This document shows positions 17,893 to 55,553 of a stretch of DNA of 58,069 bases, piece by piece (position 1 is the stretch's first letter; the number at the start of each line of letters is the position of its first letter). The stretch is from Rhizaria sp. SCN 62-66. Taxonomy: Eukaryota. The stretch is from positions 1-58,069 of the forward strand of contig MEDY01000168.1 in NCBI GenBank assembly GCA_001724265.1. Reading direction: 5' to 3'. Made by a program: the position numbers and the translations under genes. The notes under the pieces were generated by a model. It searched no databases. It was given only the letters and a program-made list of their open reading frames with translations, and was not told the DNA's origin.

Positions 17893-20800
17893 ATGTTTCA
17901 CCGCGGCATGTTTCCTTTGCAGGGACAGTGCGCAAGGATGGCTTTGAGCGCAACGGCACCAGCGTCAGCATCCACTGCAGCTGTCACAAGCTCTGCAATA
18001 GCTGTCGTGTCTCCCGCGTCGTCAGTCTCTTCCCCCACACTCTGCAACATGTCTCCCTCAATGCCAACAAACAGCGCAGCCACCAAGCACACACGTCAAG
18101 CTTACGATAATACCGCCGATAACTCTGCTGGTATAAGTTCGATAGGTGGTGACCGATGCTCTCAAGCTGGTTTCGCCTCTGCTCAGTCACAGGTACAGGC
18201 ACCGTCACAGTAGCCGCAACCGCCACCCGCAGCATCTGCACCGGCACCAGCGCTCCCCCGCGTCACCCTGCTAGGCTTTTCCGTACCCACAGGCGTTGTT
18301 CCAGGTGCCCGTGCAATGCATTTGCTTCAACGCTTTGCACAGCCCCGCTCCACTCCTTGTCCTGGCGCAGATGCAACCACGACATCAAACAGCAGTGCGC
18401 TTAACAGTGCAAATGCTGCCGCGGCGGGAAGCTGGTCCTGCGGCGTTGTCGGGTTGCGGCTTGATAGCAACGAGTACGTTCTCTGTGCGACGCTTGTGCC
18501 GTGCCCACAGTCACTCGTTCACAGTCACTCTGACACGAATGCGACCGTGCACTCTAGTGCAGCGGAGCACGAGCAAAGCACGAGGTTTTTGTGCTTGCTG
18601 ACGCGGTGGCGCTTGCTTCTTATTGCGCCACCGGGGTTCAACACACATGCAAACTCTTGCATGCCAATGCAGCGACAGTCACAATCGCCATCGCAACAAC
18701 AACAGGATCAGCACGCGCTGCTTCGTCCTCTCGTCCAGATCCCCACCAAGGCTCAAACACAGTCAATGGCGCTTGCCCATCAGCGCGAACAGCAACGCGC
18801 ACAACAACAAGCTCTCTTAACGCAACAAGCGCAGTGTGCGCGCGTGTGGTCCGAGCTGTGGCTTTCTACGGCCGTGTCTGCAGCCGTGACAGTAAACACG
18901 AGCGCCAACTCTTGCGACGAGAACTATGCTGCGAACAGTCGCTTCAGCGCGAGTAGTGGTGCTACAGGGGCTTTGCTTGGTGAGCTACGGGCAGTGCCTA
19001 CCAAGTCCCACACTCGCTCTAGCAATCTAAAGAACATGCACTCTTCACCCGGATCTTGCGCAAGCTCCGAATCAAGAGTTGATCTTAGCCACGGCAAGGC
19101 CAGCTCCGACTTAGCAGGTATTCAGTCGAGCAGACTTACACCTAACAATATTGTACCAACACTACAACGTAAGTAGCGCCCGCAACGGCCGTGTTATTGC
19201 GATGAATGCTGGACTCCATCCTTGCCGTCTCTCGGCACAAGTTTGTCGCAAGTGCCGTCTCATAACATCAGCGGAGGCTTATTGCCAGCACTTGCGCCAC
19301 ATGAGTCACATGACGTAGTCTCACTGAGATACACGGTTACCCCGACTGGTAATGTTGTGGTTAATATTAGCCTTGTTGCCTGCGACAAGACTGCTAGTGC
19401 TTGTTGCAGTGCGACTCCGAGGTTTGCGACGAAGACCTTGACGCAAACTCACGCAGATGATGAGAGCAGCAGCGTCCATGACTGCAGGGGCACGCATTTA
19501 GTCTACGCCTATGATTTGAGCAAAAAGAGTGAGCCGCATTAGCACCAGCCGCTAGCGCTTACCCTCACAGTCACCAGCGCTGCCAACCAAGCTCGCGTTG
19601 CGGTGCTTGCGGCTGAAGCTTCCGCGTACAGTGCCGGCTCGCTTTTCCCGCCGTCAACCAAGATGCACGCAACATTATTCCATCGTAGAAACTCTGACAT
19701 TCCCGGCAACCAGAGTGAAAATAACGCCGTCAACAGCAGCAGCATTAGTGTTTCTTCAGGGGCGATCAGTGTTTGCAGCAAGTTTGATGACAATGATGAC
19801 GGTGATAGTGCTAGCGACGAGTCTCGCGACGCCGATGACAGTAGCAACAATGAGAGCATTATCAGCGCTGACGAGAGCCCACAGGTGATTGTTTCACTTG
19901 TATTTAACACTGTTCCGCTGCCAGCGCTTGCGAATCCTCTCAACCAGCCAGCCGGTAATGCTGGTGACACTCGGTCGAGCGCAGCCACAGCCGCATCAGA
20001 GCGTGATGAAGCATTGGCCAAGAACAGCAGCAGTGTTTCAGAACTTGGTCAATTCCAACCCGTCATTGCCAAGGCCTCTTCTGCTGGTTTGTCCCATGCT
20101 GTGTCGGTGCGTACTTGGTTAGGCTCGTCACTTGGAAGCTGGGGTTGGTTATGCACTTTTAAGACTGCTGAGAATGCTCAATTCTTTTCAGACATCACAC
20201 AGGTTTGTTCAATCAACTTTCCGCGATAAAAACATGATAACATATAGGTTAAATAGTTTAATTCAGCATGTTTAAATTTACTTTCTCACGTCAATGTTTA
20301 TGTTCTGTTTTCGCTCAGCATTTGATCGACGCCTCAAGTCGCCGTGCAAGCACAGCCTCAGCCGCCCTGATCAGCAGCCTGCCTGCCTTCGTCCCACTCG
20401 TTGCGCCAGCGCTGCCCACAGTCACAAATGCCGTTTGCAGCTTGCATCACATGATGACGCATTCTCGGCCTGACGAGAGTCGAACTATTGCGTTGCAGGT
20501 TCAGCAAACCAAGAAGTACGAGCAGCGCAGACGCAGCACCAACCATCGAGTGCTCAAGTCAGATACTCACACGACTACTAAGAATAACAGCAGCAGCGCA
20601 GTTAGCAGTTTACACACAAGCAACAGCACTGATGGCGAGAAGCAATCATATGATGAGGAGACTGATGATGATGACGACGTTAAAACTCAACGCATGGCAA
20701 GCACCAAGCCCTCGCGTCCGCGTCCTGGCCACAGGCGCGTGCTGCCAATCCTAAGTCGTACTCAGTCTCCCGCTCTGAGTGACGACACGCTGGGCGAGTT

Positions 20801-23800
20801 CACACTCAGCGAGTCTGCACAATCTCAGCTTCAAAGCCAATTTTTCATGCAGCAACAACAGAGTCGCCTTATGTTGGCCGTGCTCGCAGCCGCCGGAATT
20901 GCGCCTGCAACGGCGCGTTCAGTCGCAGCCCATTCAGCAAAATTGCTTGCTGGCCCTGCGCGACTCGCAGCGGCCCCTGCAACGACCGTGCTGTTTGAAG
21001 GGTTTCTGTCGTATCGCAAAGCGGGGCGGTTCGCGAGCTGGCGCACGGGCTACGCTGTTGTGACCGCGTACGGCTGCGCTGTGTACGAGTCCGTTCCTCC
21101 AGCCACTCACTCCGCTTGCCGTATTTCTAGCAATCCACACACAAACGCAACTTGCGCCAAACAAGTGGTTGCTTCAAGCAGTGGCAGCGGTAAATGCGGG
21201 CAGGCCGACGTTGCCGACGCGGAGACAATGCATTACACGTGCGTTGGCTGCGGCAACACCTCATGCGCGACATTTCTTTCGAAGCACGGCATTAAAACAG
21301 ATACCACTAACGACACCGCTGTGTTTAATGCAGCAGGCCAAGACAGGGGTGCAAGTTTTGTGACAGCCCCCAAGCTCACAATGCCATCGGTGCGCGCTCT
21401 CCACGCTCAACACGTCCTTGCACAAACGCAGCAACTGCCACATCAGCAGCAATCTGCACTGCAGCTGCTTCAATCAAGCAGTACAGACAACGATGAGCGT
21501 ACTGCCTTGCCATGTATTGGCACTGTTGCGTTTACTGAACGTGACGTTGACCATCTTGTTGTTCTTGTCAACAATAGCACAGAAGCAAATATTGACGCAA
21601 CAACTCAATGTGAATCAGGTTCAGCAACGCAAAAGCAATTACACCCGCAGATACGGCCGCAATTGCAACAACAGCAGATTAAACCGAGACTATGGTGGGT
21701 GATCGAGCCCTACATTGTTGCGACGTCAGCAACGTCATCAGCGAGCGCGTACAACGCCGCAAAGCAGCAAACACAACCGCCAACGTTTAAGATGTTATCA
21801 CTACAACTGCACATTTGTCTAGCTCCAGCTGCCACAGACATTGTTGCCACCAGCGCTAAAGCAAGTGTTGCGCACAGCGGCAAGGCGCAGTGGCGTATGG
21901 TGTTTGAGACGCACTTAAGCTTCCCGACACCAAATGTGGCGGAGCAATGGCTGCGTGTGCTGCGCGTTGCTCTTAACCCACCGCCAGCGGCAGTCCCTTC
22001 TACCCAAGCTCCTGCAACCGAAGCACCCCACACAGTCAGCGTTAGTACTTCGCTTAGTCCCAACAAAGCTGAGGCTGGGAGGAGTTCACACGTTTTGCAG
22101 AGTCCAAACGCCGTCTTCAAGCCGATGGCCTTGGTGAACAACTGCTGGCACTCACGTCTTACGGTTCCTACTTACGCAAAAGCTTTGGTTGACACCGCAG
22201 CGCACACTGTGTCCAACATCATCTGCGGGGATGTCAGCACACTCGTTCCATCCTGTCATACATGTGCAGCTGCTATTGACGCATCACTCGCGCATGAACT
22301 ACGCCACGCTTCTTCTAACGACAACATCAACTCTTAGTCGTTAACACCAGTATCAAGCGCACAGTGCGCAGCTCAAAGTTGTTGCAGCAACGATGCAGCG
22401 TGGTTTGTTGCGTCCCCATCTCAGATAGCGGCGACACGTGGCGCTTTAGGCGGATTCGCTTTCACACCATACCTCACAGTTGTATGTTCTCAGTCTGCTT
22501 TGCGCACACGAATTTCTATCAGTCTCTCTGATTGTGATGAAAATTGCACTGACACTGAAGACAACAGTAGTAGTGATGCGAGCACATCTGACTCCGACCA
22601 AGAAAACGATAGCGAGAACGATGGTGACCAAGACGGAAACAGTCCACTTTCGCAACCGTCAGCACCTGCACTTGTTAACACACCGTCCGCTCTATTTGCC
22701 ACTGTTGTGCATCAAGCGCTAAGCTCGCCGCTAAATCACCATTTTGCTGCGCCGCAACCAAGTCCAGAACCGCCGGCGAATGAGCCTTTAGCGGCCGTAT
22801 CAACGCCAAGTTTGATATTGGCAACATTACCACCGCCCGGACTCGAGTCTTCAAAGCCGCACACACTGCACACGCTGGCTACACAAAAGAAAGCATTTGT
22901 TGGTGAGCCGGTAAGTCCGGACGGCGGGTACTGGGGACGCGCAACGCCGCAACAACGGCTATGGCAGCGGTGCGTGCAGCAAGATGCGCCTTTCAGGGCC
23001 TCACAAGTTCAGGATTCTCAGCGAGGGGTTATTGAAAGGGAGGTGAGTTCTGAGTATTCGGATACATTTAGTCAAAGCAGCACACACAATCAAGTTATTG
23101 AAGTCGTGCCAAAAAATGGTGATTGCTTGACAACTGTTGAGGCTAGCGGGCGTAGGCGAGCATTGTCCGATGTCACTTTTGCAGCCGTACATAGCCAGAG
23201 TCCACTGTCTCGTGAGTGTTTTCAGAGTGGCGAGAAGCAAGAGTATTCGCTGCCAACCGTGCACTATGGCGCAAACCGCGAAGTGGCGATCGTGAGTAAA
23301 CCGTTACAAAACCGACGAGCTCGCGTACCAGGTGGTGACACGTTTACACTCTCACGACCGAGTCACGAGGAACAACACGGCCATGTTGCGCCAGTACAGC
23401 CGCTGAGTTGCAAACAAACGCAGAGCGACGACGGGCCATCGCACAGTAGAATGTTACGTTCACAGTCTGTGACCGCTGTCGGCAACCTCAGCCACACTAG
23501 TGGACTCGACAGCGGTACAAACTCGTTGTGTTCGTCTCCTGCCGGGTCCACTGCGTCAAGCAGTATTCTGTCGCCGTCACAGTTTTATGAGCAAACTGCG
23601 TCAATGCTGCCCGCACTCTCATTGCCATCTGCACATCATCATCAGCACTACAATCAGCACGGATTTGACATCCAAAGGCAGCGGGACACCCAGCATCATA
23701 AGCTGCAGAACGAGCCTTGTTGCCGCACCATGATAGAGTTTGCGTCGCCGCCACCTTATCATGCACAGCTCTTCCACCGCCAGTCACATTACTCTCAGAA

Positions 23801-31233: not shown

Positions 31234-31264
<31 letters not shown>

Positions 31265-36600: not shown

Positions 36601-39600
36601 CTCGGCGGCCCCGCCTGGGGGCTGGCAGCCGCGGAGGCGCTGGCTGCGTTTGTGGCGGCCTCGCGGTCGCTCTCGGTGCTCGTGCTGGCGGACAACGCGT
36701 TTGGCGTGCACCTCGTCGCGCCCACCACCGGCGCCGCGGCGGGCCTCCTCGCCGACGGCAGCGGCTCCGGCGGCGGCTGGGACGGCGACGACCACTGCGG
36801 CGGCGACGGCACAGCCGTCTCTGTCTACGGCGGCGGCGGCGCTGGCGCGGGCGCGGGCGGGAGCCGGGCGATGACGCGGTCGTCGTCGCTGGCGTCGCTG
36901 CTGCACGCCGTGCCCGCGCCCGCCGCCAACACCGTCGCCACGCCCTACAACAGCGGCAACAGCGGCGGCAGCGCTAACCCAGGCAGCGGCACTGGCTCCC
37001 CGGCCCCGGCCCCGGCGCCGCTGTCCGCGTCCTCGTCCGCGCTCGCGCTCAACGCGCGCGCCAACACGGCGAACAGCAGCAGAAGCAACAACGCCAACGC
37101 AGTGCTGGGCTCCGCACCTGTGTCACTGCCCGCGGCCGTGATCGCGCCCTGCCCCGGTCTGCGCCTGCTGTGCGCGGCCGTCCTCCTCTCTAAGTCGCTC
37201 ACCTCGGTGGACCTCTCGCGCTGCCATATTGACGACACGGGGGCGGAGTGCATCGCGGCCGTGCTCGCGGACCGCGGCGCGCGCGTGCGGAGACTCACGC
37301 TCGACGACAACGCCATCCACGTGCGCGGCGCCGTCGCGCTGGCCAAGGCGCTCGAGGGCAACACCACGCTCGTCGCGCTGTCCATCGCCGCGCACACGCC
37401 CGCGGTGCTCGCGCTGCAAACCGTGCCGTCGCCCTCGAGCTCCAGCTCCAGCTCCAGTAACTCTACCTCTAGCGCCAACGCCAACTCTGGCTCTGGCTCC
37501 GGCTCGAACGGCACCGCTACCGCGAGCCTGTCTGCGCAGTCGGCGGCGTTCCCGCCTTTTACGAGCGCGAACAGCCCCGCCTCGTTCAACAACAACGCCA
37601 GCGGCCCCGTCAGCGGCAGCAGCGGCGGCAGCGCGGTGGGCGGCCAGTCGACTGCGGCGCAGTGCCTGGACCGCACCGAGTACGCGGCGCCGCTGCGGCC
37701 GCTGCCGTGCGCGGGCGTGTGCGCGCTCGCCGGCGCGTTGGCAACGCACAACGACACGCTGACCGAGCTCACGCTCTCGGGCGCGCACTGCGGCGACCGC
37801 GGCGCGCGCGCGCTCGCACGGGTGCTGCACCGCCGCGCCGCCAAGAGCGCCGCCGCGGGCCAGAGTTGTGGCAGCGGCAAGAAGAAGAAGACGGCCTGTG
37901 GTGCCGACGTGTCCGCGCGGACGCTGACTGGCGCGCACGTGCACGGCGACGCGCCCCTGCTGCCGCCCCTCTCGCCCTCCAAGTCCCACGGCAGCGTCAA
38001 CTGCGACGCCAGCATCGAGCACCACGGCAGCAACAACGCTGTCTACACTCTGGCGCCGCAGCGCCTGAAGTCTTTGTCGCTGTCTTGCTGCGGTATCGGC
38101 CCCAGCGGCCTCCGCGCGCTCGCCGCCGCGCTCGCCGCGGTGCCGCCCGCGCAGGCGACGCTCACGGTGCTGGATCTGGGCGGCAACCTCTGCGACGCCG
38201 CTGCCGCCGCCACGCTGGCCGCGACCGGGGACGTTGCCGTCGCCGCCGCCGCCGCCGGGACGGACCCTGACGACGCGCTCGCCGCCGCCGCCGCAGCCGC
38301 CAACGCCGCCGCCGCTGCCGCCGCCGGGTCGTCGTCCTCGGGCTACGGCTACGGGTACGGCTCTTCGTACGCCGGCGGCTACAACAGCGGCACTGGGCTC
38401 GCCTCCCCCGTGTTCGGCGCCGTCCCGGTCACGCGCCCCACGACCTCGGCCTCCGTGTCGACCTCCGTGGCAGGCGCGGGCGCTGGAGTCGTCTCCGTCA
38501 CCGGCGCGACCCCGCGCAGCGTCTACGGCACCGGGTCCGCCGTGGCTCCTCCCTCGCTCAACCTCGGCCCCTCGGTCAGCAACACCGCCAACAACGCGGG
38601 CGCCGTGGTGAGCTCGGCGCTGCAGCCACAGCACGGCAGCATCGGCCTCGCGCGCCGCGGTTCGCTGCCGCGCAGCGCCGTTGAGCTGGGCGCGCTGGCG
38701 CTTTCGGCGCACGCCGCGGCCGCGCACGCCGCCGGCGCCGCCTCGCCCGCCGCGCCCCCCGCGGCCACGCCGGCGGCCGCCGTCTCCGCCGCGGGCTCTC
38801 TGCTCGGCGGCGGCGCGCCTTTCGGCTCAACCAGCCCCGCCGCGGGCGCCGGCGCCTCCGGTTCCGCCGCCGCCGCTGCCGCCGCGCTGGCGATGGGCGC
38901 GGCAGTCCCCCGCGCGCGCGACGCGCCGCTGCCGCTGCTGTTCCCTGCGTCCTCCGCGCGCCCGCTGCCGCTGCCCGCGCACCAGCAGTGGCTGCACGCC
39001 GCCCTGGCGCCTCCGACGGCGCTGATCGACCCGCCCGCGCTCGACGCCGCTGCCGCGTGCCTGCTCCGCGCGCTGCCCGCGGCGCCGCTACTGTCTACTC
39101 TCTCGCTCGCGGGGCTGCCCGCGGGCCCGCAGACGATGCTGGCGCTAGCCGCGCTGCTGCCGCTGCACCCCGCGATAGCCACGCTGCGCCTGGGTCCCAG
39201 CACCGCCGCCGCGGCCGACGCCGTCACGGCCGCGGGCAGCCTCCGCGCCGCCGCCGCGGCCGCCGCCGCTGCGGGCGCGGGCCGCGACGCGCTGCTGTCC
39301 CCGCGCGGGGCCGGCGGCGCGGGCGCGAGTGGCGCCAGCCTGGGCCCCAGCGCCGTGGCTGTCGCCGCGTCGGTTACACCCGGCCAGCGAATCCGCCGCG
39401 CGACCTCGGTGCCCGCCGCCAGCTCCAGCTCCGGCGCAGTCCCGGTCCCCGCCGCGGTCGCCGCTGCGGGCGGCGGCGGAGTGCTGTTCGGCGGTCACGC
39501 GGGGCTCAACGTCAGCGGGCTCGACGTCGAGGACGGCAGCGCGAACCCCAGCCCCAGCCCCAGCGACGACGACGATGACAGCGCCGCCGCCGCTGAGGAG

Positions 39601-42600
39601 ACCAAGGACGGCGACAACAACGGCGGAGACGGCGACGAGGAGGAGGAGGACGTCTGCGCGGTCGCCTCCGCGCGCGCGTCGGTGCTGGCCGACGCCGCGA
39701 TCGCGGGAACCGCCGCCTCGGCCGCGCTCGTGGGCACCGAGCCCGTGGTCGTGATCGTGCGCCCGGAGGCCGTGACGCGCGGCGCCGTCGCGCCCACGCT
39801 TGCGGCGCTGCGCGGGCTCGGCCTCACGCTCATCGCCGTAACCGAGACGCGCCTCTCGCTGCAGCAGGCCAAGGCTGCGCTCGCCTACACCGCGGCGGCC
39901 CCCGCGCTCGCGGACGCGGCCTCGGTGCTCTGCGCCGACTCCGCGCTCTCGCTCTCGGCCGCGCTGAGCGCCGCCAGCGCGGCCAGCGCGGCGAGAGCGC
40001 TGACCCCGTCCGCCGCCGCGAGCTCTGCCGCCGCGGTTGGCATCAGCCCCACGGGCGCGGCCGTGGTGACGCATGCGGCGTCGTGCGCGGCCGCCGACGC
40101 CGTCACCGCCGCTGCCGCAGGCTTCCCCGTGCCCACGTGCGGCCAGACCTCGGCCTCAGTGTCGTACGACGTCTACCACCTCGCCGCCGCGCTCGCGCCC
40201 GCTCTCGGCGCGGAGCCCGTCGCGTTCGACTCTAGCGCGAGCGCGAAGCCGAAGACTCCGGCCGCATCGAGCTCTGCCGTTGCCTCCCCAGCCAACACCA
40301 GCTCTGGCTCGAGCTCGGCCGCGCTGCCGGCTGCGGTGGCGCGCGCGCGCTCTCTGTACGCGGCCGCCGCGGGCCCCGCCGCGGAGCTCGCGGGCACGCT
40401 TGCGGCCTCGCGCTGCGTCATCATCCTCGCCTCCGGCCCTGCCGCGGCCGCGATGACCGCCCACGCGCTTGGGCCCTCGGACCCCGCCGCGGCGCGCGCG
40501 CTGGCCTCAGGCGCGCCCTTTCCGGTGCCTGTGTCGCACCCCAGCCTGGGCCCCGCCGCCGCGCTGCCCGCGGCCGCGGCCGCGGCCGCGACCGCCGCCG
40601 TCGCCGCCGCTGCCGCGAGCGCCGCGGCCGCGTGGTGGCGCTCGCGCCCGCTGGCGTCGCTGCCACTGCGCGCGGTCTTCGGCCGCGACCGCGCGCACAA
40701 CGGCCTCCTCGCCACCGCGGGCCCCCGCGCCGCGCGCGCGCTCGCTGCGGCCCTGCTGTCGCAGGACTGGCTGCTCACCGCGCTCACGCCCGTGCCCGCG
40801 GCCATCGCCTTCGTCCAGCCGCTGTCCGCGCGCCGCGGCAGCGCGGCCGCCGCGGCGGCTGCGGCGGGCGCTGCGGCTGCTAGCGGCGCCGGCGCGGCCG
40901 CGTTCACGCGCGCCTACTCGATCTCCCATGTCTCGGCCCTGGGCCACGGCTTCGCGCCCGCGCAGTTGCCGCCGCTCGCGGGCCCCGGCGCCACCTCGGT
41001 CTTTGGGCCCGGCGCCACCGCAGGCGCGGGCGCTGCCATGCCCACTAGCGCGTCGGTCGCGGCGGCGCTGGCTGTGGCGAGCGCAACCGCGGGCACCGAG
41101 GCCGTTGCTCCCGGCGACCGTGCGCTGGTGACCGCCGCCGCGGCGCTTGCGCACTCGATAAACGTGACCACGAACAACAGTGGTGTGAGCGCGGGCGGTG
41201 ACGCGTTTGCACCGCAGCAGCAGCAACAGCAGCCGCAGCAGCCGCTGCCGATCGTGACGCTGATGTCCGACGGCAACAACAGCAACGGCAGCACGGCGCG
41301 CCTCAGCAGCGCCAACGGCCGCGGCGGCAGCGTGCGCTCCTGGATGCATGCCGCGAGCAACAACCTGTACTCGAGCGCCGACTCCGTGCCCGCGGTGGCG
41401 CTGCACCGCGGCGTCCTGCTCTCCGCGCTGCAGCTCACCGCGGTGCCCTCGGTGGCCTCGACGCCGCTGCTTGCCGCACTGGCCGCGCCCGCCGCGGCTG
41501 CCGCGGCCGCGGCCGCGTCGCTGTCGTTGCCGTCGCTGGGCTTCGGCCTTGGCCTGGGCGCTATGTCGGGCGGCCTGCTGGGCTCGCTCCGGTCGCTTTC
41601 GCTGGGCGCGGGCGTGGCGTGGACGAGCGTCTCCTGGGCGCTGCTCTGCCGCGTCATCGCCGCCAGCGCCGTCACCGAGATCGTCATCACGCACGCCACG
41701 CTTCCCTACTGCACCGCCGTCGCGCCGCCGCCCAGCAGCACCCGCGGCGCGGCGGCGGCGACGACCGCGGCGGCGACGGCGCGGCCCGCGCTCATGTCGC
41801 CGCTCAACTCGGCGCATCCGGGCACCGGCAACGGCGGCGGCATGGGCAACAGCTTTGGCTACGGCGACATCATGCGCCGCCGCAACAGCGCGGATTCCCC
41901 GACGAACAACGGCACCACCACCGCCGCGGCCGTCATCGGACACAAGTCATTCTTCGCGCCCCCCTCCGGCCCCCAGCCCAACACGAGCTACTCATACAGC
42001 AACAACAACAACAATAGCACCAGCGACTCTGCGGCTGCTGTGCACGCGATTACCAATCACGTGTCCATGCACGCGCGCGCGTCGCAGGCCTCGCTGTCCA
42101 GTAACAACACCAGCAGCAGCGGCTCGCACTCGTCCTCCCACACCCTTAACCGCAGCAGCTACAACAACAACAGCCGCTCCGACTCGGCCACCAGCGCGCG
42201 CCCGCAGTCGGCCGACCTCAACGCCAACATCGGCGGTGGCGGCAGCAACGCCCGCGGCAGCGGCGGCGGCGCGCGCGGCAGCGGCCGGTCCTCGCGCAAC
42301 GGCACGGGCGACGTCATGGCCTCGCGCCATCGCCGCATGCGCTCGACCGACGTCGAGGGCGCGACAGAGAACGACGCAGACGCCGCAGTCGCCGCTGCTG
42401 CGGCCTCCGCGGCCGCCGCGGGCGCCTCCGCCGTCACCGGGTACAGCTTGAGCGCGCGCGCGTCGCTGCCCAGTCCGACCGCGTTCTCGCGCTCATTCTC
42501 GAGCAGCAACGCCACCGGCAGCGGCGCCGCAGGCGCGGACGACGCGGCGGGGCGGTACTACAGCAACGACACCGTCGTTGCGGGCTTCTCGGCCGGCAAC

Positions 42601-44472
42601 GGTCGCCCTGTGTCGCAACAATACGGCCACAACATCGCCGGGTTCGTCAGCAACGGCTTCGGCGGCGACGGCGGCTACAGCGGCCCCCACCGGCAGCAGC
42701 CGCTGGAGGAGGAGGCCGGGCACGAGGACGACGAGGACGACGACGACGACGTCTACTACGAGGCTGCGCGCGAAGGCCGCCGCCCCGCCGCGCCCGCCGC
42801 GCTTCAGGCCTCCATCGCCGTCGCACCCGGGACGTCGGCGTCGTCGTCGGCCTCCGCGGCCGGCAGCGCTGTGCCCACGACCTTCACGGTCACTGAGCCC
42901 GACGCCGCCGAGCAGTTCTACTGGCTCTCTGAGCCGTCGCTGGGCCCGCGCCCCGTCCGCGGCTCGCTGGCAGACGCCAACGGGCACGCCGCGCACTGCT
43001 TGCACGCGCTGCTCGCCGCCGTCTCGGCCTCTGCAGCGCCCGCAGTGCGGCTCGATCTCTCGTACACGCGCCTCGGCGACGGCGGCGCGTGGGCGCTTGC
43101 GGGTTACTTCAATGCCGCGGCCGCCGCGCGCGAGCAGCGCCGGAGACTCGGCGCCGCCGCGCCCGCGGTGCGCGACCCGCTCGTGTCGCTTAACCTGCGC
43201 GGCTGCGGGCTCGGGCTCTCTGGCCCGCTCACAGTCCCCAACAGCAACAACAGCGCCGGTGGCGCCAGCAGCACCAACGACGGCGCCGCTGCGGCCGCCG
43301 CGGCTGCACTCGCCGTCGCTGCGGCGGCGTCTGGCGCCGCGGGCGGCAACAACGGATCTGTCGCCGCCGCCGCCACGGCCGCCGCGGCGACTGTGCTGTC
43401 GCGCCAGGGATCCTTCAGCGCCGGCCGCGCCGGGCTGGCGAGCTCCCAGTCGGCCGCGAACCTTATCGCCGCCGCCACCCACCCCAACGCCGCCGCCGGC
43501 GCTGCCACCGCGGACGCGTCGTCGTCGCTGTCGACGGGCTCGCCCGCGCCCGTGCTGGGAGTGGGCCTCGCGTCCGCCGCCGCCGCCGCGGCCGCCGCGG
43601 GCGCGTCGGGCGTGGTCTCCACTGCGGGGCTGGTGCTCGACGCCGCCTCGGTCTGCGGCGCTCTCGCCTCACCTCACGCCGCCGCGGCCTACGCGCTGCT
43701 GGTCGCGCGCGACGCTGTGCCGATGCTGCCCGGGCTCGCTGCGCTGATGGCCGCGCTCGCGCTGCCGCTGTCGCCGACGCTGCGCACGCTAGTGCTGGCC
43801 GACAACGCGTTGCCCACGCCCGCCGTCGCCGCGCTGGCCGCCGCGCTGGGCGCCAACCGCAGCGTCGCGGAGCTGGACGTGGGCGCCAACATGCTGCCCA
43901 GCACCGACGCCGCGCGCGCAGCGGTCCGCGCGCTGCTGGCAACGCCGCGCGCGCTCTACACGCTCGTTCTGCCCGATATCGTGCTGCCCCCGGCCTACGC
44001 GCTGGCTAGCGGTGCCGCCTCCGCGGCGGCCACGACGCGGCTGATGACGCCTGCCGCGGCCGCGGCCGCGGCCGCCGAGGCCGCTGCAGCCGCCGACGCC
44101 GCCGCGGAGGCCGAGGAGGACGCGCTGGTCGCCGCGCTGGCGTCCGGCCTGGCCGCCAGCGGCTGCCTCGCGTCTGTCGACCTCGGACTGGCCTTCTCGA
44201 CGGGCGTGGAAGAGCGCCACAAGGAGACCATCGTCGCCGCGCTCATGGACAACAGCGGCGGGTCCAAGCTGCGCCGGCTGTTCGCGCGCGGCCAGCCCCT
44301 GCGCGACCGCATTGCGGCGAGCACCAGCGGCAGCGCCGAGGTCAAGGTCGACGTAGCTGAGGCAGAGCGCATGGCCGAGCTCGAGACCGGGCTCGCGGCG
44401 CTGCTGGCGCGCCACAGGGTCGAGGCCGCGGTTGCAGCGCTCTCGGGCAAGCAGCAGCAACAACAGCAGTAA
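33670..44472 (+). CDS. Giant single-exon leucine-rich-repeat protein (~3600 aa): SDS22-like LRRs + LRRcap, RI-like LRRs, degenerate NDK-like domain
   Basis: Repeats such as LRKLNASGNKL, LLALDLSQNRISTL, LQALNLAGNSI; cap LDLRHNPVTRLPNYRLRVI...LTLDGVPVTAEE; RI-type LTSVDLSRCHIDDTGAECIA and LTLDDNAIHVRGAVALAKAL. First ATG at 33670. Stop is TAA. Confidence 0.9.
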   Translation: MLSAPSRPSAPPAAAPPAAPVHRAQFEAHDRSLTDLAPASGLSSDEAELSKLLTGLARSSRTGAPAFLTLSAAGTGLASLGAVARFPLVENVDVSNNALEDLSPLAALTQLRKLNASGNKLAELLRVLPLSSTSSGWSNSESASASNSPALSSMRLRPSQPQQASSSSASLPPRPSSSLSLLTDADFSHNGIHVIPDHVAAFPALARLNLRSNSLVSLHNTDLLPALTHLDATANAISDLADFQTCPRLSVLLLAQNSIDRPALPPLPALLALDLSQNRISTLDALTPAYLPRLQALNLAGNSIARLDEVARLAALSNLASLDLRHNPVTRLPNYRLRVIWLCHLRRRALPSAFPVAIASPSASAAASTPTSASANASANASASAMVEGGLRVLPALAAAPAPPASAAASAAARGLLTLDGVPVTAEELTEARALLGDEDCLRAVLHNHVFALSSGMNSNCATLNNTAHTNAAAAAAGAQTEDAAAGSADGGPASGAGFSASVMPGSVHTLPGLLSLTQPLASNGSHVSNSANISNTVSESGFVAHYPQLNSNAALGSTTTLAAVIAQTIADFAPDPVVTSAIRSLTALNASSIASHNSCFNMNSHSANTKAFPVPTAAEAVALAAAASTARATRPPAPPAASAALASFASHMSPSPASAASVSVPAAALIASSAAAAAATPAVSAALGASLWGRAGEKGLFARWERVVALVSAYAEAKKKTKLPPTEEPANANGGLPTVHLTLSDVHLGPVALWVLSRAIATRRIPGLTALDLSGSFMPPILVHGANAGASTSSSTNSMSSANLNIASSASGNNAAAGAAAAGGVSKVAAASAAALSALAAAVAAAAGSDGNGDGFESADSNHNGGPGDDDDDDAAAAIVAATISAAACAASIASACPPQRLRNNSGINNSSSSTAPVAVSASSLAATVAASASATQGWERALGGATGWRALTSALALRPSQTMTSLHTLKLSRCGLGGPAWGLAAAEALAAFVAASRSLSVLVLADNAFGVHLVAPTTGAAAGLLADGSGSGGGWDGDDHCGGDGTAVSVYGGGGAGAGAGGSRAMTRSSSLASLLHAVPAPAANTVATPYNSGNSGGSANPGSGTGSPAPAPAPLSASSSALALNARANTANSSRSNNANAVLGSAPVSLPAAVIAPCPGLRLLCAAVLLSKSLTSVDLSRCHIDDTGAECIAAVLADRGARVRRLTLDDNAIHVRGAVALAKALEGNTTLVALSIAAHTPAVLALQTVPSPSSSSSSSSNSTSSANANSGSGSGSNGTATASLSAQSAAFPPFTSANSPASFNNNASGPVSGSSGGSAVGGQSTAAQCLDRTEYAAPLRPLPCAGVCALAGALATHNDTLTELTLSGAHCGDRGARALARVLHRRAAKSAAAGQSCGSGKKKKTACGADVSARTLTGAHVHGDAPLLPPLSPSKSHGSVNCDASIEHHGSNNAVYTLAPQRLKSLSLSCCGIGPSGLRALAAALAAVPPAQATLTVLDLGGNLCDAAAAATLAATGDVAVAAAAAGTDPDDALAAAAAAANAAAAAAAGSSSSGYGYGYGSSYAGGYNSGTGLASPVFGAVPVTRPTTSASVSTSVAGAGAGVVSVTGATPRSVYGTGSAVAPPSLNLGPSVSNTANNAGAVVSSALQPQHGSIGLARRGSLPRSAVELGALALSAHAAAAHAAGAASPAAPPAATPAAAVSAAGSLLGGGAPFGSTSPAAGAGASGSAAAAAAALAMGAAVPRARDAPLPLLFPASSARPLPLPAHQQWLHAALAPPTALIDPPALDAAAACLLRALPAAPLLSTLSLAGLPAGPQTMLALAALLPLHPAIATLRLGPSTAAAADAVTAAGSLRAAAAAAAAAGAGRDALLSPRGAGGAGASGASLGPSAVAVAASVTPGQRIRRATSVPAASSSSGAVPVPAAVAAAGGGGVLFGGHAGLNVSGLDVEDGSANPSPSPSDDDDDSAAAAEETKDGDNNGGDGDEEEEDVCAVASARASVLADAAIAGTAASAALVGTEPVVVIVRPEAVTRGAVAPTLAALRGLGLTLIAVTETRLSLQQAKAALAYTAAAPALADAASVLCADSALSLSAALSAASAASAARALTPSAAASSAAAVGISPTGAAVVTHAASCAAADAVTAAAAGFPVPTCGQTSASVSYDVYHLAAALAPALGAEPVAFDSSASAKPKTPAASSSAVASPANTSSGSSSAALPAAVARARSLYAAAAGPAAELAGTLAASRCVIILASGPAAAAMTAHALGPSDPAAARALASGAPFPVPVSHPSLGPAAALPAAAAAAATAAVAAAAASAAAAWWRSRPLASLPLRAVFGRDRAHNGLLATAGPRAARALAAALLSQDWLLTALTPVPAAIAFVQPLSARRGSAAAAAAAAGAAAASGAGAAAFTRAYSISHVSALGHGFAPAQLPPLAGPGATSVFGPGATAGAGAAMPTSASVAAALAVASATAGTEAVAPGDRALVTAAAALAHSINVTTNNSGVSAGGDAFAPQQQQQQPQQPLPIVTLMSDGNNSNGSTARLSSANGRGGSVRSWMHAASNNLYSSADSVPAVALHRGVLLSALQLTAVPSVASTPLLAALAAPAAAAAAAAASLSLPSLGFGLGLGAMSGGLLGSLRSLSLGAGVAWTSVSWALLCRVIAASAVTEIVITHATLPYCTAVAPPPSSTRGAAAATTAAATARPALMSPLNSAHPGTGNGGGMGNSFGYGDIMRRRNSADSPTNNGTTTAAAVIGHKSFFAPPSGPQPNTSYSYSNNNNNSTSDSAAAVHAITNHVSMHARASQASLSSNNTSSSGSHSSSHTLNRSSYNNNSRSDSATSARPQSADLNANIGGGGSNARGSGGGARGSGRSSRNGTGDVMASRHRRMRSTDVEGATENDADAAVAAAAASAAAAGASAVTGYSLSARASLPSPTAFSRSFSSSNATGSGAAGADDAAGRYYSNDTVVAGFSAGNGRPVSQQYGHNIAGFVSNGFGGDGGYSGPHRQQPLEEEAGHEDDEDDDDDVYYEAAREGRRPAAPAALQASIAVAPGTSASSSASAAGSAVPTTFTVTEPDAAEQFYWLSEPSLGPRPVRGSLADANGHAAHCLHALLAAVSASAAPAVRLDLSYTRLGDGGAWALAGYFNAAAAAREQRRRLGAAAPAVRDPLVSLNLRGCGLGLSGPLTVPNSNNSAGGASSTNDGAAAAAAAALAVAAAASGAAGGNNGSVAAAATAAAATVLSRQGSFSAGRAGLASSQSAANLIAAATHPNAAAGAATADASSSLSTGSPAPVLGVGLASAAAAAAAAGASGVVSTAGLVLDAASVCGALASPHAAAAYALLVARDAVPMLPGLAALMAALALPLSPTLRTLVLADNALPTPAVAALAAALGANRSVAELDVGANMLPSTDAARAAVRALLATPRALYTLVLPDIVLPPAYALASGAASAAATTRLMTPAAAAAAAAEAAAAADAAAEAEEDALVAALASGLAASGCLASVDLGLAFSTGVEERHKETIVAALMDNSGGSKLRRLFARGQPLRDRIAASTSGSAEVKVDVAEAERMAELETGLAALLARHRVEAAVAALSGKQQQQQQ

Positions 44473-48060: not shown

Positions 48061-50207
48061 TAGTCAGATTGTGTTCTCATATGCACTCGACATGTTCTCA
48101 CAACATGGCTTTCTTCAAGAGACCCCGTTTGTCCATGCATTCGTTGCATGTGTTGCCGATTGAGTCAAATTGACATACGCGTGTACGTTACATTAGTTTC
48201 AGTTCTTTACGTTAGTTACTCAAGTAGTTCCGAAATCGCCTTTACACCTCTAAACAAATAATCGATAATACATCGTTCAAGTAGGCGCGTATGCTTGTTC
48301 CCGTGAAAAATAATTGACAGTTTATTGCAAAGTAATCATGAGATTAAATTCAAAATGAAGCTAAATGTGGGTGTGCGCACTTCGTGGTGTGATAAGTACA
48401 TTGTCACTGCACGTACGTACACAAAAATTATGAAACTAGAGAAAGAAAAAAAAAGAGCAAAAACAAAAAGAGAGCATAACCGAGGCAAGATAGAAGCGAT
48501 ACAGAATGTAGGCCAAATAGAGACAAAGGGAAGCACGAGACACAGATGTTGTCAACAGAGAGAGTACGAATATGTGTACACCAATAGCTATACATGCATA
48601 TATGCGTGAGCAGAGAGAAATCTAAGGATATACTCGGAGAAATGTCGCATGTGTTATGAGTGCTTTGTGCGTATCAGTCGTGTTGCTGGAGAAGTTATCC
48701 GCAGTTACAGCAGTATTGATTGCCCCACATCCTCTCACTACTCATCCCGCAACGCAAGCTTTTGCTGTTCATCCGCAGATATGACAGATAGGTAGTACGC
48801 AGACACATGCCAAGAAGCTGAACAACAAAAGAGTGGCGCAAAGCTGTGGAGGCTGATCGTACGCGAGAAGAAGAGACTTAAAGAGGAACCAAACCAAATT
48901 GGGGTATTGAGTAAAACAAGAACAAGCAAGAGATACAAATTAACGTATTTCTTGCGCGCTGTTGCGTGTTGCGCATTTGCACAGAACACATGTAAGCGAT
49001 AAAAAAACACACTATCTCAAGAAATATATACGAATTGACGAGTTGATTGAGATAAATGTGCAGTGATTGTGAGCAACACAAGGATAATTATTACTAATAG
49101 CACGAGTGGGACGAGATGCGAGCAATTACAATGAAACGCAAGCAAACACAAAAGAAAGTGGTAAAGCCTTAAAACTATCAGGAGACATATGAAACCGACT
49201 GATGATTGATGACACAAAACAAACAAAACGATCGTTAAACTAGCTACTCCTATGTACACACTGAAGTATGCTGGAGTCAGCAGCGACAGTGACACACAAG
49301 CATGACCCGACCGCACGATTCCTACCATAGCACATAACAGTGTCAGCGCCTCTTAAATAAAAAACATGATGGTGGAACACAGACACCGCCAGAGATCGTA
49401 TTCGAAAAACAAAACAAAAGAAAACCACCTAACATATTCTGAAACACATCGACACAAAAACAAAAGAGAAACAATGAACATGTGCATGGGTGTGTGCGTG
49501 CCTCGAATGTAAGGGCAATGCGAAAGGGATTGTTTACTCACAGTCACAGTCATCGTCAGAGTTGCAGGCACAGTTGCAGTCACACTCAAAGCAAAAATGC
49601 ATTGAGAGGTCTGGTGACACCAGTTCGCAGAAGCTCATTGCTTGTTTGTTCTTATTGTTGTTTCCTATTAGAGGTCAGACCAGATTAAAATTCGTCACAC
49701 GACACAAACTTACACTTTCATTGACATTTCAGCACTCATACTCACACGTACACTGTGTAAGTAAGGTGCGATGGGCAGTGACGTAGCAAGAAATTGTGGG
49801 TGGGAATAGAAAGGACAATTGAGGATCAGAATGACGGGGAATAAGTTTGTGGATGATGGAGATTGATTCAAACTGTACACCCGAGTTCCAAAGAACAGAA
49901 AACAAAACAAGTCACTAGATACACATACAAATATGACAGAGTACCAAACTATTATAATGATGAACAACAAATATCATACAGAATAACATAACCATGGATG
50001 AAAACCTTTGTTCTAATATCGATGCAGAATAGGTAGCAAGATTTAAAGTATTGAAGATCGTGCAGAGAAAGAGCTCGGTTTGATTGCACCAAAAGCAGCA
50101 GCGGTGATCGCTATCGTACACAGTAGATAAGAGAGATCTTTCCAGAGAAGGGGTGAGTGAGCACGCATAGCCATTTTGCCGTGAATGTGAATTTCAGGGT
50201 AGTTGAC

Positions 50208-53200
50208 TTACATGATGGTGCACGCCTTGCACGCGTCGTCATCAGTGATATCAATGACATTGCCGTCGGCGTCGACCTAGGGGACGCCACGGAACGTCGA
50301 CGGCTCGTCCTCGTTCATCTCCTTGTCCAGACACTTGATCTCGTCGTCGTCATCGTCGTTGCCGTTGGTGCTTTTGTCGCTCTTGTCGTCGTCCGCAGTG
50401 TCGCCGTCACCGACGCTCGCGGTGGCGCTTGCAGCAGCAGTCGAGTTCTCGTCATCGCTGTTGTTGTCGTCCTTACCGCTCTCGCTCCTGTTGCCGGCCT
50501 TCTTCACGACGCTGTCGCCCTGGCTCGTGCTGTCGTCGGTGTCTGTGTCGGCGGCGGCCGTCGTACTCTCGGCGCCCTCAGTCGCAACGCTGTCGGCCTC
50601 GCTATCCTTCTTCTTTCTAGACTTGTCGTCCTCCTTTTTGTCTCTAGAGAGGATTCCGCCCAGAATGCCGCCGTTGGCCTCGGCCGCTGCAGCCGCGACC
50701 TCCGCTGGGTCGCTGTCGGTGCGCGCGAGGAGTCTCTTGCCCTCGCCTTCGCTCTCGCTCGCGTCACCATCGCTCCTCTTGGGCGTCACCTCGGACCTCT
50801 TGGGCTTCGAGTTGGCCTCGGGCACGGGCACGGACAGGGGGACAGGCTCGATGGACAAAGGCTCAGCATCAGCGGCAGCAGCGGCCGCAGTAGCGGCGGC
50901 GGCTGCCTCCGCTGCGGCCTTGAACGCTTGCTCCTCGGCAGCCTTTTCAGCAGTAACCTTCTCCGCAGCGGCCTTCCCGGCAGCCTCAGCGGCCTTGTCA
51001 GCGGCGGCCTTGTCAGCGGCGGCCTTGTCAGCGGCGGCCTTGTCAGCGGCGGCCTTGTCAGCGGCAGCCTTCTCTGCAGCGGCGGAGGCCTGAGCGGCAG
51101 CAGCCGCAGCTTCGGCCTCAGCATTTGCTTTCGCCTCCGCCGCAACCTTGGCCTCAAGCTCCGCTGCAGCAGCGGCAGCAGCCTCGGCCTCAGCCTTGGC
51201 CTTCGCCTCAGCAGCAGCCTCAGCAGCAGCGTCGGCATCAGCCTTCGCCTTGGCGTCGACCTCGGCATTGGCAGCAGCCGCCGCGGCCGCAGCGTCGGCC
51301 TCCGCCTTGGCGTCGGCGTCTGCCTTGGCCTTGGCTTCCTTGGCGGCCATAGCGGCGGTCGCCGTCGCAGCGTCGGCCTCCTTGGCCGCGCGCTCCTTCT
51401 GCTTCTCCTTGTCCGCGCTGCTGACGCTCTTGGCCTTGTCGTCCTTGCTCTCCTTAGCCTTGCCCTTGCCCTTCTCCTTGTCGTCAGCCTTGTCGCTCTT
51501 GGCCGCGACATTCTTGCCCTTGCTGCTCTTGCCCTTAGCGCTGCCCTTCTTGCCCGCGCCGTCGCCCGCGCCGTCGCCGTCGTCGCCGTCGTCGCCGTTA
51601 GCGGCACCGGCGGCAGCGTCGTCCTTGGCGGCCGCAGCGGCCACAGCGGCGGCGAGCGCCGCGGCTTCCTGCGCGTTGATCTCCGGCGGGGGCGCCGAGG
51701 GCGACACGGGCCCGCGCTCTGTCAAGGCGCTCGCGATGCGGAAGTCGTTGTCCTCCTCCTCTTCGGCGCCCTCGGCTCCGGGGTACTCGTCGTCGTCGTC
51801 GTCACTGAAGCCGGCCCCGGCGAGGATGCCGACGCGGCCCGCGGGCACGGCGCGCGCGGTCGCGGCGACGACGCTGGGTGCGTCGTGGAAGTCCTGCTCC
51901 GCCGCACCGTCGCCGCGAGACACGGAGAGCGTCGTGTCGTCGTTGTCGTCATCCAGCAGCGCGGCTGCCGCAGCCGCGGCGGGCGCCACGCGCGCGGTCG
52001 GCGCCAGCGGCTGGGGCGACTCCACGGGCGCGGGCTCGGCCGCAGCAGCAGCAGGGACAGCAGTTGCAGCAGTGGCAGGGGCCTTGCCCTTGCCCTTTGC
52101 GGGCTTCTTGCCGCCCTTAGCACCCTTCTTGGACGTCTCGGCAGCGGCGGCGGCAGCGGGCTCGGGCTCCGGCTCGGCGGCAGCAGCGGCGACGGCTGCG
52201 GCCTCAGCCACGTCATCCGGCACGGTCGAGGAGCCATTAATGGCAGTGCCCGTCTTGCCCGAGGCGGCGGCGCCCTTCTTGCCCTTAGCAGCGGCAGCAG
52301 CGCCCTTCTTGCCCTTCTTCGCGGGCGTCGCGGCCGGCTCGGGTGCGGCGGCTTCAGGGACCCGGGCCTCGTCGTTTTCGGCGGTGAGAACGTCCGCGGC
52401 GACGACAACGGCAGCGTCTGAGCCTGAGAATCTCTTGATGCTGTCGACCGGCTCCTCGCCAGTCTTGACCTCGGCCTCTGCCTCGGCCTCGGCGTCAGCG
52501 CTGGCGTTGGCGTTGGCCGCGTTAGCGGCGGCCATGACCGCGGCGACGGTGACACCCGCCGCGGCGACGGCGGCTGCGTCAGCAGCCTCGTCGCCGCCGC
52601 GCGAGTTGTTGTAGTGATCCCGCAGGGACTGGCCGGCGTCGTCGCCGTCGCCGCTGCCGCCGCCGCCGCCGCCGGGCTTGACGGGGGAGGAGTTGGGCGA
52701 GTTCTGCAGCGCGGCCGAGGCAGCAACCTCGGCCACGTCGGCAGACAGCGGGACTATAGCAGCCGGGGAGCCGCCGGAGGTCACGGCGGCGACCGGGACG
52801 GGGGCGGGCAGCACAACGTCGTCCACGGTGGACTCGGAGGCGGGCGCAGCGTCAGCGTCGGGCATGGACGCCGCCGCAGCAACGGCCACGTGCTCCTCCT
52901 GACGCTGCTGCCTGTCGTTGTCTCTCGCATCGGCCTTGGGCTCGGCGTTGCCAGAGTTGCCGGACAGCGAGGACGAGTACGACGACGCCTTGTCCTGGCT
53001 GCTGTGTGGCGCGAAGCTGCCGCCGCCGAGCCGGAGCCGGGGCTCGCCGGAGCGCGGGCTGTAGGCGTCGTCGTCAGCCTCGCTAATCGAGAAGTCTGTC
53101 TCGTCGCCCGCGCTGAGCCCGTCGTCGCCGCTCGCGCGGCCGGTGAGCCGACGCAGGCGGCGGCGGCTCGCGCTACTGCGGTGCGCGTCGGGCGTCCCCA

Positions 53201-55553
53201 CGCCGTCATCGTCGTCATCGTCGTCGTCGTCGTACTCGCCGTAGTCGCGGTCTCTGTCGTCACCGTCGGTGAGGTCCTTGCCTTCGTCCTCGCCGTCCCC
53301 AGCGCCCCGCGCGGCCCGGGCGGCGGCGCGCGCGGCCTTGGCTGCGGCGCGCTCCGCCGAGCGCTCGGCGGCGCGGGGCGAGGCTGCCGACACGGGCGCA
53401 ATGTGCTGCTCGAGCGGCGCGTAGTACTCGTGCAGCAGCGCGAACTTCTGGCCCGCAATACGCAGCAACGTGCCGTCGTCGGCGTAGCGGTGCACGACCA
53501 CGGCCGTGGGCAGCCCCGCGGCGACGAGGTGCAGCGCGCGGCGGTACTCGATGTACGTCACGTAAGATGGCACCAGCGCGAAGGCGTCCTCGTCGGGCTC
53601 CGCGTCCGGCGCCGCGGGTACGCGGTTGTTGCTGGCGTCCAGCACCGTCGCCGAGGTGACCGAGACCTGGGTGTAGTCCTCGGCGCAGATGGCGTTGGAG
53701 CAGGCCGCGGCGAGCAGCGTGAGCGCGCGCGTGAGCGCGGGGCCCCCGCCCGGCAGGATGCACACCGTCTCGGCCGGGTGGTCGAGGTTGAACACAACGC
53801 AGTCGTGCGCGATGCCGTAGCGCGCCTGCGTGTAGACGTTGTAGAAAAAACCGTCGTGCGCCAGCGTCAGGTGGCTCGCGCGCAGAGTGCGGTACACCGC
53901 GCGGTCGTCGCACGTGACCGGGAACAGCGGCCCGCCCTGCGTCTGCCCCAGCGCGGGCAGCGCGGCCGCCAGATGCACCACGCCGACGCGGAAGTCGCAC
54001 AGGCGCAGTGCGGAGTCCTTGCTGATTTTCTTGGACTCCTTCTTGGCGAGCGCGGTGGCGTCGGCCTTGCTCATGCCGCTGCCCATGCGCGCGGGCCCCA
54101 TGTCCTGCGTGGAGTCGACGTACATGACGTTCTCGGAGGACAGCCACGCGTTGTAGGCCAGCTCCGCCGGCTGCGACGCCGCCTTGACGACGACCGCGAC
54201 AGAGTCGGCGTCGGCGGCGCCGCTCTTGCCCTTACCGGACGTGGACCCGGCCGCGAGCGTGCCCTTGGCGACAAGCGCGCGTTCGGCGGCGAGCATGGCG
54301 CGCACGGCGTTCTTGCCCTTGCGCATCGCAGCCGCCTGCGCCTGCAGCCCGAGGACCCAGAGAGCAGAGATGCGGTGCGAGCCGGCCTCGAGCGTGAGGC
54401 AGCCGTCGTGCGGCACGCGCCCGCGGTCGGCGCGGGAGCCGAAGACGAGGGACAGACAGTTGCCGTCCGTCGCGTCGTCGGCCGCAAAAGACGCGAACAC
54501 AGGCTCGGTGCGCTTGCCGACTTCGAGGAACTTGACGGCGACGACGGAGAAGCACTCGATGCCGTCAGCCGTGGCCAGGAAGGCCGGGTCCGCGGGCGAC
54601 CAGCAGAGCCAACCGTACTTGTCGCCTGCGGTGAGCCCGGTGACGTTGGCGCCGTCGGACATGATCGAGTCGGCGTCGGGCCCCGCCAGCTCGACCTCTG
54701 CGTCTGCGCGGCGCGACTCGAGGAACAGCGCAGCGTTCGCGCGCGGGTCGATCGTGGACAGGAACAGGTAGCCGGGCGTGCGCGCGCACAGAACGGGCTC
54801 CAGCGACGACGGCAGCGCCGTATCGGGCTTGCCGGAGAGGCGCTCGCGCATGGTGAGCGCCTGGAGGTTGGCCTCGGAGGCGGCGGCGGCCACCTCGGTC
54901 TGGCCGGCCTCAGGCGCGTGCGGCGCGAGGTGCCGCGGCGGCGGGTATCCGCGGGACTTGCTATAGATGTCGTAGCGGAACATGTAGCAGCCGCGCAGAA
55001 GCGCTGCGACCGCTTCGGCGGGGGATATTGCGCTATCATCGCCGGCGAAAAGGTGGTGGAGCTCCTTGACCGAGGCCGACTCTGGGATGCGGCTCGCGAA
55101 GGGCTCTTCGAGCAGGCGCTTGGAGGAGTGCTCGAACACGTTCATGGTGTAGATGCGGAGGTCAAAAAGCCAGCGCTGGATCGTGTCGGTCTTAGCGCGG
55201 ATGACGAGGCCTGGAGAGTCGGGGTCTGTGGTGTTAGTGACAAGCATTGCTGTCTCGCCGCGGCTCAGCGACGTGAGGCCCTCGGGGGCCGGGCGCTTCT
55301 TATTAGTGACCCAGCTCTTGGGATCGGCGTCGGTAACAATGCGGGCGTAGATAAGAGGCACGCTGAAGTCGGGAATGTCGAGTCCGATAGCCTCCTTGCT
55401 AGGAAACATTGCGAAACGAGACCGGATCGGATCATTGTGAACAACTTGGATGGCGAAGTAGCGTTCCTTGAACTTAGTGCCACCAAAAAAGCCCTTTGAC
55501 TTGGCCGGAATGGAGAGAACACCCTCCTTTACGGTCTCATAGCCAGATGCCAT
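50208..55553 (-). CDS. PH-domain protein with Ala/Lys/Glu-rich tail and C-terminal CaaX (CTIM), ~1781 aa; in-frame TAG at 50277-50279
   Basis: N-terminal PH (VKEGVLSIPAKSKGFFGGTKFKERYFAI...IQRWLFDL) and a second PLC-type PH-like block (LEVGKRTEPVF...CLSLVF...LTLEA...LWVLGLQ). The frame continues past TAG as VDADGNVIDITDDDACKACTIM-TAA. Confidence 0.85.
50987..51070 (-). repeat. Coding 15-bp tandem repeat (~5 copies) encoding AAADK
   Basis: (gcggccttgtcagcg)n on the + strand. Confidence 0.9.

Follow-up and report, generated by a model that had tools for sequence, protein, structure and literature searches.

Introduction

Nuclear codes that read UAG as sense while keeping UAA and UGA as stops are described for the rhizarian exLh, where UAG is Leu, and for Iotanema spirale, where it is Gln (PMC5304391). 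In phyllopharyngean ciliates UAG is Leu or Gln, UAA is a stop, and a suppressor tRNA(CUA) is present; the UAG-only codes listed in the same report assign the codon to Leu, Gln or, in Scotinosphaera, Ser, and not to Glu (PMC11687900). UAG is Glu in Oligohymenophorea sp. PL0344, where UAA is Lys, UGA is the only stop, and ten tRNA(CUA) genes occur (PMC10553269). In peritrich ciliates and Blastocrithidia, both UAR codons are Glu, and tRNA-Glu(CUA) is derived from a tRNA-Glu gene (PMC11687900, PMC12153298).

The gene considered here lies on the minus strand (50208..55553) of a 58,069-nucleotide stretch, referred to as the window. Its reading frame contains a TAG near the end, beyond which coding-like codons lead to a CaaX box. 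Judged from the sequence of the genome, UAG seems to have been reassigned from stop to sense in this organism, most likely to Glu, with UAA and UGA kept as stops; we regard this as the probable explanation.

The host and the window

In a eukaryotic assembly (G000) of 34.9 Mb and 714 contigs, the window corresponds to contig C168. The runs containing this genome are labelled as bioreactor or wastewater metagenomes. Among the best 120 matches of one host MAP kinase, the protists that could be resolved were all rhizarian (six of seven lookups gave a species); the genera are Chlorarachnion, Norrisiella, Mataza, Paulinella, Bigelowiella, Amorphochlora, and Spongospora. The other named matches within these 120 are from plants and animals, some of them ranked higher. 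The host ubiquitin starts with MS-MQIF. This recalls the insertion between rhizarian ubiquitin monomers described in PMC12930898, as judged from the monomer start, the junction itself lying outside the sequence seen. The host is likely to be a GC-rich member of the Cercozoa, as placed by one marker and no tree.

Public MAP kinases P0127-P0130 are 80–88% identical to that of the host and represent relatives. An unusually divergent ubiquitin occurs in several copies, one on the minus strand of the window (1-171) and others at L141, L142, and L145, some of them broken at contig ends; near-copies with deletions are located on contig C3. The window also carries a kinesin encoded in several exons, which has a KIF21A-like domain as well as a very long low-complexity tail (1278-11812, minus strand), a small Ras/Arf-like GTPase ending in TAA (12959-13429, plus strand), and a leucine-rich-repeat protein in a single frame of 3,625 codons (33595-44472, plus strand). 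A Gln/Ala-rich protein (28153-32569, minus strand) has a homeodomain-like segment, WFINARVR, putatively of the TALE type.

The C-terminus of the gene at 50208..55553

The frame of this gene opens with ATG at 55553 and runs for 1,758 codons to the sequence FRGVP, which is followed by the TAG at 50279-50277. Behind it lies a tail of 22 coding-like codons (50211..50276), VDADGNVIDITDDDACKACTIM, which ends in CKACTIM and is closed by TAA at 50210-50208. When the TAG is read, the single-frame gene encodes 1,781 residues, and the CTIM motif (50211..50222), directly 5' of the TAA, is the extreme C-terminus; it holds this position only if the TAG is read. The initial annotation had placed a CaaX box 22 codons past the TAG, and this arrangement is confirmed. 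A second Cys (50229..50231), three residues N-terminal of the CaaX Cys, may be a site of palmitoylation.

The coding character of the tail was assessed by a log-likelihood score of coding versus non-coding sequence under a 3-periodic Markov model, trained on the long ORFs of this genome. The tail scored +7.6, and 17 of its 22 codons end in G or C. This exceeds the value of the 22 in-frame codons that follow each of the 102 TAA or TGA ends used as a null (maximum 6.5, mean −12.8). The earlier description of the extension as coding-like holds; a CaaX-like motif was found at the end of none of these 102 extensions. Immediately past the TAA at 50208 the score becomes negative, and this TAA seems to be the real stop. 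It should be mentioned that kinase L067 of this genome has the C-terminus CCTIM, followed by TGA.

A C-terminal CTIM probably directs farnesylation under the CaaX rules. If UAG is a sense codon genome-wide, the CaaX tail is an ordinary C-terminus, and this is considered to be the best reading. The protein would then always end in CTIM and would probably be farnesylated and membrane-anchored, and the adjacent Cys might carry a second lipid. Standard-code gene calls truncate such proteins: both public copies from this gene (P0121 and P0122) are cut at FRGVP and are without the CaaX tail.

The remainder of the protein comprises a PH-like N-terminus, an uncharacterised middle, and a long low-complexity region rich in Ala, Asp, Glu, and Lys, ahead of the C-terminal CaaX box. 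In the ESM Atlas, the ten best matches of the N-terminal region (55104..55553) all belong to the PH clan, with a best score of 0.88, and a Pfam scan of the same region gave no match; the PH-like domain is taken as a lead only. An AlphaFold prediction without an alignment was unusable (mean pLDDT 33.9), and a PDB sequence search with residues 231-420 returned nothing. As for orthologous C-termini, a word-index search and HMMER against 1.84 billion representatives each returned only the query protein, and the metagenome contigs yielded no orthologue.

The TAG site in other public runs

Four public runs were compared at position 50279; X3 and X4 cover it, and the RNA run X7 and X8 do not. In X3 the TAG is kept, on a contig that spans 49756-50532 with zero differences at a depth of 4.5; this run may duplicate a sample taken in the campaign to which the possible source belongs. 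In X4 an A>T change at 50279 gives AAG (Lys). No further difference occurs on the contig, which is 1,078 bases long (depth 12.5), and the CaaX box is intact. A stop is thus not conserved at this site, which is TAG in X3 and AAG in X4, and the Lys codon indicates that a stop is not required there.

The TAG might belong to a 3' splice acceptor, or the in-frame TAGs in general might be assembly errors or nonsense alleles. The sequence around 50279 (CCCCTAG/G) does resemble an acceptor, its AG is preserved by the AAG of X4, and RNA run X7 has no contig over the site. Moreover, when phase-0 TAGs with coding sequence downstream were collected, the upstream side was non-coding-like in 48 of 66, so that acceptors account for the majority of them in this genome. 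Against this, the 45 bases upstream of the TAG at 50279 score +9.4 as in-frame coding sequence, and each 60-base block is positive over 600 bases upstream, whereas acceptors give −0.8 to −21. The single strong donor upstream, at 50476, would shift the frame. Assembly errors would not prefer TAG over TAA and TGA, a nonsense allele in the sole eRF1 gene (described below) would be lethal, and in-frame TAGs were seen again, the one at 50279 in X3 and the one in eRF1 on public contig L189. Splicing or artefact is therefore very unlikely.

In-frame TAG codons and stop usage across the genome

Elsewhere in the window, the plus-strand gene 17611-24740 contains four in-frame TAGs (18211..18213, 19174..19176, 19540..19542, and 22335..22337) within long frames that lack TAA and TGA; the last of them links ORFs of 691 and 800 codons. 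This gene is AT-richer and is without a Pfam match. TAG seems to be commoner where the codon bias of a gene is weak.

Stop usage was examined in 1.02 Mb, about 3% of the genome, consisting of tiles of eight large contigs and loci around the searched families, and thus not a fully random sample. Among the stop triplets that close a coding-like frame, 16 of 50 TAGs, 2 of 117 TAAs, and 1 of 94 TGAs have more in-frame coding sequence behind them. Strict transitions from coding to non-coding sequence occurred at TAA 59 times, at TGA 38 times, and at TAG 4 times; on inspection, two of these four TAGs were intronic, one was followed by coding-like codons, and one may be a gene end. At 15 of 28 Ras-family loci a terminal Cys prenylation motif was found, before TAA in 10 and before TGA in 5; the remaining 13 either continue into an intron, are long, or have no such motif. 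Over the whole sample, protein ends with a Cys motif lay before TAA in 15 cases, before TGA in 6, and before TAG in none. Within this sample of about 3%, UAA and UGA end genes and UAG practically does not, as is expected of a UAG-only reassignment. TAA is the main terminator, so that codes of the UAR=Glu or PL0344 kind, with UAA as sense, do not fit. A search for tRNA(UUA) with a narrow pattern gave two matches versus one in the control, neither of which looked tRNA-like.

In-frame UAG was found in intact conserved genes: eRF1, a Ubc6-like E2, a ubiquitin-like domain, and four kinases. Seven of 43 candidate TAG sites lie inside Pfam domains. TAG was present in 11 of 142 kinase matches, where four sites are in the domain and one is in a coding-like insert; the other six were removed on inspection as acceptors or intron sequence. 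Of 43 matches in the DEAD family, one contains a TAG, and contig C303 has two TAGs. Dynein genes were discarded as a source of TAG columns, nearly all TAGs there being splice acceptors; inside their coding-like sequence no TAG occurs in about 35,000 codons. Altogether, some 20–30 credible sense TAGs were counted in about 216,000 coding-like codons, and the codon is used roughly once in 10,000 in GC-rich genes. In a control in which each stop was read as sense, "internal" sites numbered 35 for TAG, 33 for TGA, and 10 for TAA. The TGA and TAA sites resemble shadow frames or intron edges; a test on length only does not, therefore, discriminate.

These counts bear on the isoform toggle of the initial annotation, in which partial decoding of the TAG would yield soluble and membrane-anchored forms. 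Programmed readthrough specific to this gene, under the standard code, would suit a TAG near the C-terminus with a functional-looking tail behind it. It presupposes a codon that otherwise serves as an ordinary stop in this genome, a role that TAG does not appear to have: in-frame TAGs are present in many unrelated genes, none of the 21 Cys-motif ends lies before TAG, and a cognate tRNA exists. The bases at +4 vary among the TAG sites, and the site itself is a Lys codon in X4. The codon behind the TAG at 50277 is GTC, which is not a known leaky-stop context. Gene-specific readthrough is extremely unlikely. Decoding of the TAG is upheld. The toggle is not, given the near-absence of TAG as a terminator in the sample, the GTC context, and the Lys codon of X4, although some leakiness may occur.

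A tRNA with the anticodon CUA

A single-copy gene for tRNA(CUA) was found at G000:C84:76008-76080 by a pattern search in which ARAGORN called one of six candidates. Compared with 24 other tRNA types, it matches tRNA-Glu(CTC) best, with a score of 68 and the next at 52. It is identical to tRNA-Glu(CTC) at 47 of 73 positions and to tRNA-Gln(CTG) at 31 of 72. In the first five acceptor pairs it agrees with both tRNA-Glu types but not with the tRNAs for Asp, Gln, or Lys, and G73 is shared with tRNA-Glu(TTC). In addition, the tRNA has U11-A24, U13-G22, A46, no residue 47, and a variable loop of four bases, and a T-run terminator lies behind the gene.

When set against the architecture of tRNA-Pyl, the gene can be parsed as a cloverleaf of the ordinary kind, its stem being of the Glu type; the "Pyl" label given by ARAGORN follows the anticodon. 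Its structure rests on ARAGORN and a manual parse, as unconstrained folding gave no cloverleaf (z −1.5). U11-A24, U13-G22, A46, and the lack of a residue at 47 constitute the Glu identity set of E. coli, in which C36 is also a strong determinant, as given in PMC9976931. C36 is the base changed in tRNA(CUA); it should be mentioned that these identity rules are those of E. coli and not of the host. The gene is flanked by GC-rich, host-like ORFs. An origin from an AT-rich ciliate contaminant was rejected in view of these flanking ORFs and of the kinase L057 on the same host contig.

Release factor eRF1

The genome has one eRF1 locus, in which a TAG stands in frame at human position 107 (L031:1594-1596 on G000:C63), in the N-domain, with a gapless alignment to homologues. 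The same TAG is present on public contig L189, which may share its origin with this assembly; a metagenome scan for eRF1 loci of relatives returned only L189, matching this genome's own gene. Among 117 homologues the TAG column is Glu in 106, Asp in 10, Val in 1, and Gln in none; the Val belongs to the closest relative, P0004. As reported in PMC4381064, an E107A change in eRF1 halves readthrough, so the position occupied by the TAG is one with a function. The placement of this codon within the N-domain of eRF1 itself may represent feedback or coincidence.

Several residues of the stop-recognition motifs are altered. T32S and G57S occur in none of the 117 homologues, a set that says nothing on other variant-code eukaryotes, and T58K in one, P0004, which retains T32 and G57. 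L124M and K130Q are likewise each absent from the 117. According to PMC5304391, T32 is the residue in contact with the G of UAG, and in the eRF1 of Iotanema it is replaced by Gly (T32G); no match to the eRF1 positions was found in PMC12440015. The stop-recognition motifs of this eRF1 are thus changed, and a causal role of the changes is putative.

TAGs in conserved genes, the scarcity of TAG ends, the tRNA(CUA), and the eRF1 substitutions together argue that UAG is a sense codon genome-wide, although a very rare one, and we hold this to be very probable. Decoding of the TAG was the claim of the initial annotation for one gene; the evidence reaches wider, and the reassignment is likely to extend over the whole genome and to have a tRNA(CUA) of its own.

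The amino acid probably inserted at UAG

The call of the amino acid is based on about ten informative columns. Pfam bits summed over seven TAG sites were 435.8 for Glu, 434.2 for Gln, 433.8 for Lys, 432.9 for Asn, 432.0 for His, and 431.6 for Asp, with Tyr (422.9), Leu (420.8), and Trp (418.4) at the low end. Glu is ahead of Gln by 1.6 bits and of Leu by 15 bits, with Gln and Lys within 2 bits. Leu, Tyr, Trp, Phe, and Cys were excluded by the column scores. BLOSUM scores over ten hand-picked sites, five of them from one three-member kinase family, were 15.5 for Glu, 14.0 for Asp, 12.3 for Gln, and 8.2 for Lys. As to individual sites, the TAG of the Ubc6-like E2 aligns with Asp in yeast Ubc6 and Ser in UBE2J2, that of kinase L075 with Asp in both of two paralogues, and the column of kinase L047 holds Glu 10, Ala 9, Asp 8, and Gln 1 of 39. 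Two TAG sites pair with Lys.

Kinases L074, L075, and L076 are paralogues with helical-repeat C-termini and have five in-frame TAGs together. In L074, a Gln-rich linker contains a single in-frame TAA as well, and this member may represent a pseudogene or an allele. The ubiquitin-like domain with an in-frame TAG (L039:1333-1935, plus strand, on G000:C681) is fused to a Peptidase_S74 domain; it may derive from a mobile element or be a relaxed paralogue.

UAG might instead be Gln throughout the genome, as in the Iotanema/Hartmannula type, if GlnRS charged tRNA(CUA) despite its body. The TAG column of L039 is Gln (CAG) in the organism's own ubiquitin in each of 8 alignments, Gln stands at the TAG in the paralogue closest to L076, several TAGs lie inside polyQ, and Gln trails Glu by just the 1.6 bits given above. 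However, CAG>TAG is a transition, so that Gln neighbours would be expected even if UAG were Glu, and few acidic columns would be expected were it Gln. Gln is absent at eRF1 position 107 and nearly so in the L047 column, dominated by Glu, Ala, and Asp, and tRNA(CUA) has a Glu acceptor stem and far fewer identities to tRNA-Gln(CTG) than to tRNA-Glu(CTC). The Gln reading is distinctly improbable. The columns and the tRNA body together indicate that UAG is probably read cleanly as Glu.

A possible course of the reassignment

In the proposed course, UAG would have been lost as a terminator, and a copy of tRNA-Glu(CUC) in which C36 changed to A would have captured the codon. The resulting tRNA(CUA), charged by GluRS, would decode UAG and could not pair with UAA, and T32S, G57S, and T58K in eRF1 would weaken the recognition of UAG. 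TAG may now arise from time to time from GAG, CAG, or AAG, staying very rare.

The reassignment might be incomplete, with UAG read mostly as Glu, perhaps also as Gln, while a weakened eRF1 competes and some chains stop. In that case the UAG in the eRF1 N-domain might exert negative feedback, and the protein of 50208..55553 could be partly without its anchor. The codon is extremely rare (none in the dynein codons), yet it occurs in the 430-codon eRF1 gene; tRNA(CUA) is present in a single copy with a weak anticodon stem, T32S retains the hydroxyl group, and the columns are mixed among Glu, Asp, Gln, and Lys. On the other hand, TAG is not in regular use as a terminator, the codon at 50279 is AAG in X4, and feedback through the eRF1 TAG is a post-hoc coincidence, Val being present there in the closest relative. 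Incomplete reassignment is quite unlikely. An early stage of a code change, in which UAG is no longer a terminator and tRNA-Glu(CUA) competes with a partly blinded eRF1, would make eRF1 self-limiting through the UAG in its own mRNA, and CaaX tails proportional to suppression; this is fairly unlikely.

Discussion

A code with UAG as Glu and UAA as stop was not found in the open-access literature searched, and a prior description elsewhere is possible. No second nuclear code change in Cercozoa was found in the open-access literature searched, and term searches of two 2026 cercozoan genomics papers gave no mention of one. If the preferred reading, UAG as Glu, is true, this genome would provide a Glu version of a UAG-only code with UAA as stop, and few nuclear codes separate UAG from UAA. 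It would also bring the code changes in Rhizaria to two, of apparently independent origin. With a rare codon, a single-copy tRNA, and a close relative (P0004) whose eRF1 has T58K but neither T32S nor G57S, the lineage would be a good one for distinguishing codon capture from an ambiguous intermediate, and it suits a test of the predicted role of eRF1 T32 in the reading of UAG.

The code resembles those of exLh, also rhizarian, and Iotanema in that UAG is sense in the nucleus and UAA and UGA are stops. As in Iotanema, eRF1 is changed at T32, to Gly there and to Ser here. Unlike in exLh, Leu is excluded, lying 15 bits behind Glu over the seven sites. The tRNA(CUA) of exLh and Iotanema was predicted only, whereas here it was found, on a Glu body. 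UAG is far rarer here than in Iotanema, where it makes up about 8% of Gln codons (PMC5304391).

With the phyllopharyngeans, the present genome shares a UAG-only reassignment in an uncultured organism and a tRNA(CUA); theirs is a ciliate code for Leu or Gln. As in PL0344, UAG appears to be Glu by way of a tRNA-Glu-like tRNA(CUA), but UAA is the commonest stop here and one tRNA(CUA) was found. A tRNA(CUA) that seems to come from tRNA-Glu is also the feature common to peritrichs and Blastocrithidia, in which, unlike here, UAA is Glu as well. Finally, the change in Blastocrithidia is AT-driven, whereas this genome is GC-rich.
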